Below are positions 56,016 to 61,039 of a DNA stretch of 64,000 nucleotides, in pieces (the first letter of the stretch is position 1; the number at the start of each line of letters is the position of its first letter). The stretch is from Escherichia phage BF17. Location: sequence record MW822008.1; one strand, given 5' to 3'. The notes below the pieces were generated by a model. It was given only the letters and a program-made list of their open reading frames with translations. It did no database searches and had not been told where the DNA came from. A program made the position numbers and the translations under genes.

Positions 56016-56789
56016 ATGAAAGTTGACTATCGTAGTCCAATAGATATTGGATTCATAGAAGAATTTTGGGATGATCTTGATATGGATATGATTGTTCGCT
56101 ATCAAAAACTCCCACAAGACTTTATAAAAAAACATTTTGATAAAATGAACCCTAATATGTTAGCTCGATATCAAACAATGACAACTGATTTTCTTAAAGA
56201 AAAGTGGGAGTGGTTTGATAAAAATGTTATTGCACAATATGTAGTCATGCCAATGGAATTGATTATGGAAAAATGGAATGACTTCAAAGATAACTTTCTG
56301 GATACTGTTGCTAAGTATCAAAAACTAACACAAGATTTTATTCAAGACAAATGGAATGACCTTGTTGAATTTAGAGATGGTGTAATGTCGGAAATTTCCA
56401 GATACCAAAAACTAACACTTGATTTCATTAAAGATAAATGGGATTATATTGATAAGAACTATATTTCATATTATCAAACTTTAACGGTTGATTTTATCAA
56501 AGATAATATTACTGCATTAAATGTTGCAGCAGTATCCGCATTTCAAATACTATCGGATGATATACGCTCATTGATGGGGTTAGAAGCACCAGCAAAAACT
56601 ATTACGGGTAATCAAATACTCGCGTTGGACCCATGTGCCGATGGTATGGCTCGATACAATGCTCATACACCTGACAATAATACAGTTTTGACATGGAATG
56701 AACTACTTACACTACACTTGGGTTCACAAGAAGGAATTAGTGATATCCATTGGCTATCATATAAATTGGGTCATAAAATTAATACATAA
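56016..56789 (+). CDS. Tandem-repeat protein of unknown function between nrdA and nrdB
   Basis: About seven ~23 aa units of the form F-[IL]-K-x-K-W-x(3-5)-D-x(5-8)-Y-Q-x-[LM]-T-x-D (e.g. 'YQKLTQDFIQDKW', 'YQKLTLDFIKDKW', 'YQTLTVDFIKDN'). Confidence 0.5.
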   Translation: MKVDYRSPIDIGFIEEFWDDLDMDMIVRYQKLPQDFIKKHFDKMNPNMLARYQTMTTDFLKEKWEWFDKNVIAQYVVMPMELIMEKWNDFKDNFLDTVAKYQKLTQDFIQDKWNDLVEFRDGVMSEISRYQKLTLDFIKDKWDYIDKNYISYYQTLTVDFIKDNITALNVAAVSAFQILSDDIRSLMGLEAPAKTITGNQILALDPCADGMARYNAHTPDNNTVLTWNELLTLHLGSQEGISDIHWLSYKLGHKINT

Positions 56790-56801
56790 AGGAATATATA
56801 T

Positions 56802-57926
56802 ATGTCAGTTTTCAAAATTAATGAGAAGTCTCACCTAGAAAAGAATATGTTTTTTGATGAAAGTGTTGATATTCAACGATTTGAAAGTAACAAATACTCT
56901 ACACTTGAAAAACTAACTGAACAACAGAAAAGTTTCTTCTGGACACCAGGTGAAGTTGACGTATCTAAAGATAAAATTGATTTTGCTAACCTCAATGATT
57001 CTGAGAAGCATATCTTTACATCAAACTTAAAACGTCAAATCCTTCTTGATTCAGTTCAAGGTCGTGGTCCTAATCTAATGCTACTGCCATATGCATCTCT
57101 ACCTGAACTTGAAAACTTTATTGAAACATGGGCGTTCTTTGAAGGTGCTATTCATAGTAAATCATATACACATATTATTCGTAACATTTATCCTAATCCA
57201 TCTGAAGTTTTTGATACTATGTTGGACATTCCAGAAATCACTGATTGTGCTGCTGATGTTTCAAAATACTATGATGACCTTGATGAACTAGGAACATTGT
57301 ATCGTGCATTAGGTGAAGGTACTCATACTGTTAATGGTAAAACTATTGAAATTAATATGTATGATCTAAAGAAAAAACTATGGTTATGTTTGAATAGTAT
57401 TAACATTCTTGAAGGTGTTCGTTTCTATGCTAGTTTTGCTTGTTCATGGGCATTTGCAGAGAACAACCTCATGGAAGGTAATGCAAAGATTATTCGTCTA
57501 ATTTGTCGTGATGAAAACCTTCATCTCGCAGCAACACAAATGATTTTACGTCTTCTAAAGAAAGAAGATCCAGATATGGTAAAAATTGCCGAAGAGTGCT
57601 ATGATGAAGTGCTGGAAATGTTTATGTCTGCTATTCGCCAAGAAGAAGCATGGGCAGATTTCCTCTTTAAAGATGGTTCTATTATTGGATTGAACTCTGA
57701 AATTCTTAAACAGTATGTTCGCTGGATTGGTTCTAAGCGTATGACTGCACTTGGTATCAAATGTCCATATACTGTATCCAAGAGTAACCCACTACCGTGG
57801 ACTGAACACTGGGTAAGTGGTAGTTCTGTACAGGTAGCACCACAAGAAACTGAAATCAGTTCTTATATCATTGGTGGTATTGTGAATGATATCCAAGGAG
57901 ATACATTCTCGCCATTTAAACTATAA
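56802..57926 (+). CDS. nrdB: Ribonucleotide reductase class I small subunit
   Basis: Ferritin-like di-iron signature around 'EGVRFYASFACSWAFAE...RDENLHLAATQ'. Confidence 0.9.
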   Translation: MSVFKINEKSHLEKNMFFDESVDIQRFESNKYSTLEKLTEQQKSFFWTPGEVDVSKDKIDFANLNDSEKHIFTSNLKRQILLDSVQGRGPNLMLLPYASLPELENFIETWAFFEGAIHSKSYTHIIRNIYPNPSEVFDTMLDIPEITDCAADVSKYYDDLDELGTLYRALGEGTHTVNGKTIEINMYDLKKKLWLCLNSINILEGVRFYASFACSWAFAENNLMEGNAKIIRLICRDENLHLAATQMILRLLKKEDPDMVKIAEECYDEVLEMFMSAIRQEEAWADFLFKDGSIIGLNSEILKQYVRWIGSKRMTALGIKCPYTVSKSNPLPWTEHWVSGSSVQVAPQETEISSYIIGGIVNDIQGDTFSPFKL

Positions 57927-57939
57927 AATAAAACTAACA

Positions 57940-57962
57940 GGGATTCTATGAATCCCTTTTCT
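57940..57962 (+). terminator. Intrinsic terminator after nrdB
   Basis: GGGATTCtatGAATCCCttttct; the track ORF's ATG at 57948 lies inside this hairpin. Confidence 0.6.
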
Positions 57963-57974
57963 TATGGAATTTAT

Positions 57975-58142
57975 ATGAGTGATATTTTTACAATTGAGCG
58001 TAATGTTATCTATGACTTCTACCTAACTGGTGGATTTAAGGTAACTGGTGCAGTATCTGATGTTTGTCCCAATGGTCTTGTACTGGTAGATGGTACTAGA
58101 GTCGTTCAGGCACACATTGTCATGTTTGTACCAACCGAATAA
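57975..58142 (+). CDS. Small protein (55 aa) with an Sm/Hfq-like sequence pattern
   Basis: 'GFKVTGAVSDVCPNGLVLVDGTRVVQAHIVMFVP' parallels Hfq '[36 protein letters not shown]'; weak RBS. Confidence 0.3.
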   Translation: MSDIFTIERNVIYDFYLTGGFKVTGAVSDVCPNGLVLVDGTRVVQAHIVMFVPTE

Positions 58143-58166
58143 AATTTAGGACAAACACCAGAACTG

Positions 58167-58175
58167 TGCTATAAT
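58167..58175 (+). promoter_or_regulatory. Extended -10 promoter motif TGCTATAAT
   Basis: gaacTGTGCTATAATgag about 30 nt upstream of the ATG at 58205. Confidence 0.4.
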
Positions 58176-58177
58176 GA

Positions 58178-59582
<1,405 letters not shown>

Positions 59583-59585
59583 TTA

Positions 59586-61039
<1,454 letters not shown>

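Follow-up and report, generated by a model that had tools for sequence, protein, structure and literature searches.

Does the DNA behind nrdB, a ribonucleotide reductase (RNR) gene of a jumbo coliphage, encode a protein of the Hfq type, and does that protein keep what Hfq uses to bind RNA? The question arises in Escherichia phage BF17 (sequence record MW822008.1), of which a stretch of 64,000 nucleotides (nt), here called the window, was analyzed. An open reading frame (ORF) of 55 amino acids (aa) follows the nrdB terminator at 57975-58142, and an earlier note had aligned its product by eye with Hfq and suggested that it might be an RNA chaperone-like factor for small RNAs of phage or host. 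Use of the Sm fold by phages has been documented recently: in T4, host Hfq is brought to the neck, and early proteins encoded by the phage have an LSm-like fold. We find that the product is confidently predicted, on the strength of a structural model, to fold like the bacterial RNA chaperone Hfq, which is its best solved match by two methods. By the defining features of the Hfq family, however, it is not an Hfq.

The window comes from a jumbo coliphage of the RaK2/121Q type, and its positions 56800-59600 are 99.6% identical to WPEC3 and EC.P1, 99.5% identical to fEgEco12 and Ecwhy_1, and about 81% identical to 121Q and PBECO4. The ORF is present where the earlier note had placed it, running from an ATG at 57975 to a TAA at 58140-58142 and encoding MSDIFTIERNVIYDFYLTGGFKVTGAVSDVCPNGLVLVDGTRVVQAHIVMFVPTE. 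It is an annotated coding sequence (CDS) in fEgEco12 (g400) and 121Q (gp34), and in RaK2, phAPEC6, G17 and slurp01 it is intact, yet unannotated. The product matches PHROG 17251 (E 4.1e-24, with residues 1-54 covering positions 5-58 of the 62 in the profile), and tblastn located the gene in 64 phage records at 36-100% identity, the carriers being jumbo phages of Escherichia, Klebsiella, Salmonella, Erwinia, Serratia, Yersinia and Pectobacterium. Gene order is constant: nrdA, an optional 257-aa ORF, nrdB, the 55-aa ORF, a 77-aa gene, a virion protein gene and MazG, with dihydrofolate reductase (DHFR) and RNase H later on. The gene occupies the same slot in RaK2, BF, CBB, Munch, Yen9-04, A4, Turkey5 and five divergent metagenomic members, and the most divergent metagenomic members (25-35% identity) still carry it in the same module. 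No paralogue was found within the window.

Among the relatives, a core of 50 codons aligns without gaps or frameshifts. Between the window and 121Q there are 11, 4 and 25 changes at codon positions 1, 2 and 3, respectively, with proportions of synonymous and nonsynonymous differences (pS and pN) of 0.69 and 0.14 and a ratio of nonsynonymous to synonymous rates (dN/dS) of 0.08. The ratio is 0.17-0.45 in most other unsaturated pairs and rises to 0.94 in the most distant CBB comparisons. Because the substitutions concentrate at third codon positions, the ORF appears to be translated and under purifying selection. Where the earlier note had named a missing Sm-fold prediction and missing evidence of translation as the outcomes that would speak against it, we obtained a confident Sm-fold prediction and a strong evolutionary signal of translation. 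The comparative evidence thus indicates that 57975-58142 is a genuine protein-coding gene limited to the RaK2/121Q/CBB clade of jumbo myoviruses, and probably a core, single-copy gene of that whole clade. A non-coding RNA was rejected as an explanation, given the strong codon-position bias and the lack of any Rfam match anywhere in the window, and a defence or anti-defence family was rejected for want of a PADLOC match. The family is small: among 5.8 billion proteins it forms 34 clusters, and 28 representatives came out of a profile search of 1.84 billion proteins at E <= 0.001, the closer ones 49-104 aa long; the sequences read were the short family relatives, and the weakest matches (246-1446 aa, in multiple stretches) were left out. 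IMG/VR scans for divergent members returned RaK2 itself only. The papers on CBB (PMC5259590) and fEgEco12 do not mention the gene.

An AlphaFold2 monomer model built from a 33-sequence alignment of the family has a predicted local distance difference test score (pLDDT) of 91.7 and a predicted template modelling score (pTM) of 0.74. Residues 1-11 are modelled as coil, and strands at 12-17, 22-31, 34-37, 42-44 and 48-53, the last preceded by a 3-10 turn, form an all-beta, helix-free model: a strongly bent, antiparallel Sm-type sheet of five beta-strands, as in Hfq. The highest values in the structural match list belong to Hfq of Caulobacter crescentus (7.9), the Hfq-like protein of Methanocaldococcus jannaschii (7.8) and the Hfq proteins of Thermotoga maritima (7.6), E. 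coli (7.6), Aquifex aeolicus (7.5) and Synechocystis (7.5), with archaeal SmAPs and eukaryotic LSm/Sm proteins at 7.4 and below. These matches align 53-55 of the 55 residues with root mean square deviations (rmsd) between 1.8 and 2.1 A. Hfq also made up all 50 of the top 50 Foldseek matches in the PDB (template modelling score (TM) 0.73-0.76, rmsd 1.1-1.7 A, 23-29% identity), and a BFVD model of the orthologue from CBB, obtained independently, superposes on it at TM 0.85. The Sm-like fold proposed in the earlier note is therefore borne out at the level of confident structure prediction.

In sequence, the echo of Hfq appears weak but specific. Aligned with hhalign against E. coli Hfq, the family gives a P value of 2.1e-4 (probability 46%) over an ungapped segment that places residues 11-39 on Hfq 20-48, the Sm1 region. 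Against a four-sequence Hfq alignment the P value is 5.8e-4, and against Staphylococcus aureus Hfq it is 0.047, again over the Sm1 segment. Both Sm1 glycines (Hfq G29 and G34) are kept, G20 in 28 of 33 family members and G25 in 32. At the level of profile databases the signal stays below threshold: the window protein has no Pfam match to Hfq (family PF17209 / TIGR02383) at E up to 10, and a single one of the 33 relatives (P0031) matches Pfam Hfq, at 16.1 bits against a cut-off of 27. The same relative scores 15 and 14 bits with two NCBIfam Hfq models (cut-offs 95 and 62), the three hidden Markov models (HMMs) together covering its residues 18-63. Profile searches of the PDB with a 12-sequence alignment, the 33-sequence alignment or P0031 alone did not return Hfq.

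The residue pattern on which the earlier note relied fares unevenly. All the residues that it listed are present (G20-F-K-V-T-G25-A-V27, L35-V-L37 and V44-Q-A-H47-I-V-M-F-V-P53), and across all six reading frames of the window the pattern occurs a single time, and 0 of 200 composition-preserving shuffles contain it. It was drawn up post hoc, however, and misses E. coli Hfq itself, which has VILL and one extra residue between the histidine and the proline. Likewise, the eye alignment was in register over Sm1, as judged by hhalign, but off by one over 'H-I-V..VP': His47 aligns with Hfq A58 and not with H57, and 21 of 33 members have lysine there.

Set beside Hfq (PF17209; PDB 6GWK, 3QHS, 4PNO), the protein shares a bent five-stranded sheet of the same size (rmsd 1.1-1.9 A over 47-55 residues), the Sm1 pattern phi-x-phi-x-L-x-x-G-x-x-phi-x-G-x-phi with both glycines, and a C-terminal phi-phi-x-phi-phi-P strand. 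The likeness ends at the RNA-binding features. In the family alignment, the column is V/Y/K at Hfq Y25, variable at K31, D/P at Q41, N/D at F42, P/V at Y55, T/Q at K56 and D/A/E at H57, and neither the Sm2 motif YKHAI nor the proximal uridine pocket (Q41, F42, K56, H57) was found. The Sm2 RG motif is absent too, loop5 reading T/Q-D-K/H. The N-terminal alpha1 helix is missing, so that Q8 and the R16/R17/R19 rim are missing with it, and the N-terminal segment is acidic, with conserved D3 and D/E8. Thus the proximal contacts (Q8 included), the distal ones (Y25, I30, K31) and the arginine rim are not conserved, and the beta3-beta4 loop is 3 residues shorter than in Hfq.

Unlike the basic E. coli Hfq (isoelectric point (pI) 9.7-10 for residues 1-65 or 1-72), the protein is acidic. 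Its net charge is -3, the family median is -5 with a median pI of 4.5, and only 1 of 52 members lies above pI 6; aspartate or glutamate is conserved at family positions 3, 8, 29, 32 and 46. It is also hydrophobic, with a grand average of hydropathy (GRAVY) of +0.58 and 47% hydrophobic residues, against a GRAVY of +0.12 for the Hfq core. That hydrophobicity is in keeping with the RefSeq and PHROG 17251 labels, by which it would be a small membrane protein (121Q gp34, CBB gp306, BF gp303 and Yen9-04 g301 are all so named). We regard this as extremely unlikely: no 19-residue stretch exceeds a Kyte-Doolittle mean of 1.45, short of the usual threshold of 1.6, every hydrophobic stretch is broken by charged or polar residues, the confident model is all-beta and lacks a helix, and orthologues far less hydrophobic (GRAVY about 0) keep the same strand pattern. 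With neither the hydropathy nor the predicted all-beta fold supporting the label, we rejected it.

What, then, might the protein do? We put an even chance on a soluble, acidic Sm-fold protein that self-associates or docks, with a ligand likelier to be a basic protein than RNA bound in the manner of Hfq. Sm proteins assemble through the free edges of beta4 and beta5, and this minimal Sm module may self-associate or dock through the same edges. As it is unusually hydrophobic for a soluble domain of 55 residues, much of its surface could be buried in such an assembly. The ligand pocket of Sm proteins is built from loop3 and loop5, and it is in these loops that the polar residues conserved here are concentrated (D32-N33-G34 in loop3, D46-K/H47 in loop5); the face that carries them would be presented to the ligand, although the NG turn may be simply structural. 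Because the conserved charges are mostly negative, the ligand would more likely be a host or phage protein that is basic and binds nucleic acids than an RNA held Hfq-fashion; non-canonical RNA binding is possible. The logic may be likened to that of Rof (YaeO), an acidic Sm-like inhibitor that blocks the termination factor Rho (PDB 6JIE; PMC11018626) and that has an Sm fold with a pI of 4.6.

Several points weigh against this proposal. Sequence kinship with Rof was rejected by hhalign, and S. aureus Hfq is acidic as well, so charge alone is not decisive and acidity is compatible with RNA binding. The alignment behind the model is shallow (effective number of sequences (Neff) 2.5), and the E-values in the Foldseek search are no better than about 2e-3. 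Neither the PDB nor the set of 1.84 billion proteins yielded a link to Hfq in HMM searches, so that the likeness may reflect either homology or convergence, and no direct expression data were found in the literature searched. Convergence is the substance of one alternative, namely that the protein is a generic small beta-barrel (SH3, Tudor or KOW-like) and the comparison with Hfq functionally uninformative. Non-Sm barrels do lie within 1 Z unit in the structural comparison; the in-register Sm1 segment and the unanimous Foldseek result stand on the other side, and we hold this alternative to be unlikely.

The main rival to an acidic, protein-binding Sm module is the function first proposed for the ORF, an Hfq-like RNA chaperone: a hexameric or heptameric Sm ring on phage or host RNAs (small RNAs, 5' untranslated regions, 3' U-tails) that controls their stability or translation in the early or middle phase. 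Its attractions are the Sm1 motif in register with both glycines conserved, the conserved polar N/D33 and K/H47 in loop3 and loop5, where Sm proteins bind uridine, the fact that RNA binding is usual among Sm proteins (PMC3710371), and the T4 variant GoF(D25Y), an LSm-like-fold protein that stabilizes an mRNA (PMC12152347). Wild-type GoF and MotB.1, however, showed no RNA effect (PMC12152347), and the losses described above fall on the very residues that Hfq uses, from Y25 to H57, and on the helix with Q8 and the rim. The negative charge, the lack of an evident conserved exposed aromatic or arginine and the failure to reach any HMM threshold add to this. RNA-chaperone function is therefore not favoured by residue conservation, the part of the earlier proposal that concerned small RNAs finds no support in this analysis, and we rate the chaperone as doubtful. 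That the phage makes its own substitute for host Hfq, or an antagonist of it, in the form of a stripped Hfq-fold subunit without the RNA-binding residues, we take, in its two versions together, to be very unlikely indeed. The protein would either co-assemble with host Hfq through the beta4/beta5 edges and poison the hexamer, or form a ring of its own that serves as a transient plug or assembly chaperone of the neck, a role that T4 fills by hijacking host Hfq. In T4, host Hfq is a transient second 'genome gate' on the neck, in a gp13/gp14/Hfq complex (PDB 9LU5; PMC12929587), and the positively charged face of the Hfq ring docks on acidic gp14 (PMC12929587). The 55-aa protein, in contrast, is acidic and is encoded apart from the neck genes, in the early/middle replication module, and none of the annotated relatives has it labelled as a virion protein.

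The position of the gene invites yet another explanation, an accessory factor of the phage reductase NrdAB, comparable to yfaE after E. coli nrdB or to NrdI/NrdH. In every genome, the most divergent members included, nrdB precedes the gene, which lies distally in the nrd transcription unit, before the next promoter. Adjacency is little informative, however, as the whole region is colinear across the clade; moreover, a conserved terminator separates the two genes, two metagenomic relatives have an extra ORF between them, and the Sm fold is not known to take part in RNR chemistry. As the family conserves no cluster of cysteines or histidines, the protein is not a ferredoxin, flavodoxin or glutaredoxin, and a ferredoxin/YfaE-like identity was rejected on this ground. 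We consider an RNR accessory factor very unlikely.

Phage-encoded Sm-like folds are already on record, and the 55-aa family is thus not a categorical novelty. T4 GoF, along with MotB.1 and Frd.2 of the same phage, forms a Tevenvirinae 'LSm-like fold' family of the early region, known from structure prediction (PMC12152347); the crystal structure of a putative cyanophage Sm-like protein is cited in the same paper (PMC12152347), and gp39 of mycobacteriophage Adephagia has been noted as Hfq-like (PMC11373665). Like the T4 proteins, the present one is a phage-encoded five-stranded Sm/SH3-like barrel with Hfq among its structural neighbours, seen only by structure prediction, and like Frd.2, which lies near frd, td and nrdA, it is encoded in a nucleotide-metabolism cluster. 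The T4 proteins, however, have 119-141 aa and an extra C-terminal domain, whereas here there is a bare domain of 55 aa, and the nearest fold neighbours are FeoA-type SH3 domains for the former and Hfq for the latter. Kinship with the three was rejected (hhalign P 0.25, 0.26 and 0.59). Canonical hfq is essentially absent from phage genomes: a collection of 50,697 records gave 7 tblastn matches. Some were bacterial fragments, miaA-hfq in 'Acinetobacter phage MD-2021a' and Salmonella whole-genome shotgun contigs; others were unverified or unclassified, namely 'Staphylococcus phage SA 1298 Kay', whose hfq is of the S. aureus type, and a gut 'Bacteriophage sp.' scaffold. CAKLQH020000029.1 and OR850394.1 are among these records. 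These appear to be contamination or unverified entries, and not established phage genes.

Against this background, no phage Sm-fold protein so far reported is smaller or closer to Hfq than the 55-aa family, which offers a natural minimal Sm domain in which the fold can be studied without the canonical RNA-binding residues. The family is worth re-annotation: once the 'membrane protein' mislabel is corrected, it gives a way to test for post-transcriptional or host-takeover control in phages of the RaK2/121Q type, some of them (several) under development for therapy.

The signals around the gene are listed in Table 1. The hairpin proper occupies 57939-57957, and the ORF starts 17 nt after it; a hairpin with a T-run separates nrdB from the ORF in 9 of 9 lineages, although the stem sequences vary. 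Straight after the hairpin, eight of the nine lineages have GGA, GGG or GGAG at a distance of 6-9 nt upstream of the start codon, and in the ninth, RaK2, AAGG takes its place at similar spacing. The ribosome-binding site, called weak in the earlier note, is indeed short but is conserved across lineages. An alternative upstream ATG at 57948, which would give a 64-aa version, lies within the hairpin loop and is lost in fEgEco12, and we therefore place the start at 57975. The extended -10 promoter TG(n)TATAAT between the ORF and the 77-aa gene recurs in 9 of 9 lineages, and CBB and Yen9-04 have an additional TGAAAC -35 motif at this promoter; the TGAAACG form seen in CBB is the 'divergent RpoD-like' promoter described for that phage (PMC5259590). 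From its position, the promoter at 58148-58175 probably marks where the following transcription unit begins, with the 77-aa gene, the virion protein gene and MazG, which would make the 55-aa ORF the distal gene of the nrd unit, bounded at its 3' side by that promoter. Presumably it is reached only through read-through of the conserved nrdB terminator, which would then be leaky, and its expression would therefore be attenuated. A TATAA box at the nrdB stop codon was set aside as a promoter of the ORF, since the conserved C-terminal codon together with the stop accounts for it.

Table 1 Features at and around the 55-aa gene in the window.
Feature	Coordinates	Strand	Remarks
nrdB, class Ia ribonucleotide reductase beta subunit	56802..57926	+	Upstream neighbour in every lineage; from ORF list and annotations
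nrdB intrinsic terminator	57939..57964	+	Hairpin AGGGATTC-TAT-GAATCCCT, then TTTTCTT; from terminator scan and RNA fold
Short Shine-Dalgarno element GGA	57966..57968	+	6 nt before the ATG; read from sequence
CDS, 55 aa plus stop	57975..58142	+	PHROG 17251; product predicted to be a one-domain beta-barrel of the Sm/Hfq fold
Promoter-like element AGGACA, 16 nt, TG-n-TATAAT	58148..58175	+	Promoter scan, 10/12 matches, extended -10 TG
77-aa gene, PHROG 16437	58205..58438	+	Adjoins the 55-aa ORF in every locus examined

The product of the adjoining 77-aa gene is bipolar, with a net charge of -7 over residues 1-45 (pI 4.05) and of +14 over residues 46-77 (pI 11.7), its tail ending in KKANRK. In one locus the gene lies 4 nt from the Sm-fold gene. 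It may encode a nucleic-acid-binding tail protein or a partner of the Sm-fold protein.

Elsewhere in the nrd region, the 257-aa ORF between nrdA and nrdB (56016-56789, PHROG 3532) contains repeats of the type YQ(K/T)L(T/P)xDFIK(D/E)KW. It also occurs in fEgEco12, CBB and some metagenomic relatives, its presence in Yen9-04 is suggested by a partly shown preceding ORF, and it is absent in 121Q, RaK2, BF, A4 and Turkey5. Since it is present in some relatives and absent in others, it behaves as an indel within the nrd operon. In some relatives, such as Yersinia phage fHe-Yen9-04 (g298/g299/g300), an inserted ORF divides nrdB into two CDSs, and one metagenomic relative has an intein in nrdA together with a split nrdB. 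Such interruptions indicate that mobile introns, inteins or homing endonucleases occur in nrd genes of the RaK2/121Q clade. Further downstream, a 12-bp GC-rich hairpin at 59593-59623 is flanked by T-runs on both strands and is probably a bidirectional terminator between MazG (58842-59582, + strand) and the converging - strand genes (59626-60042 onward).
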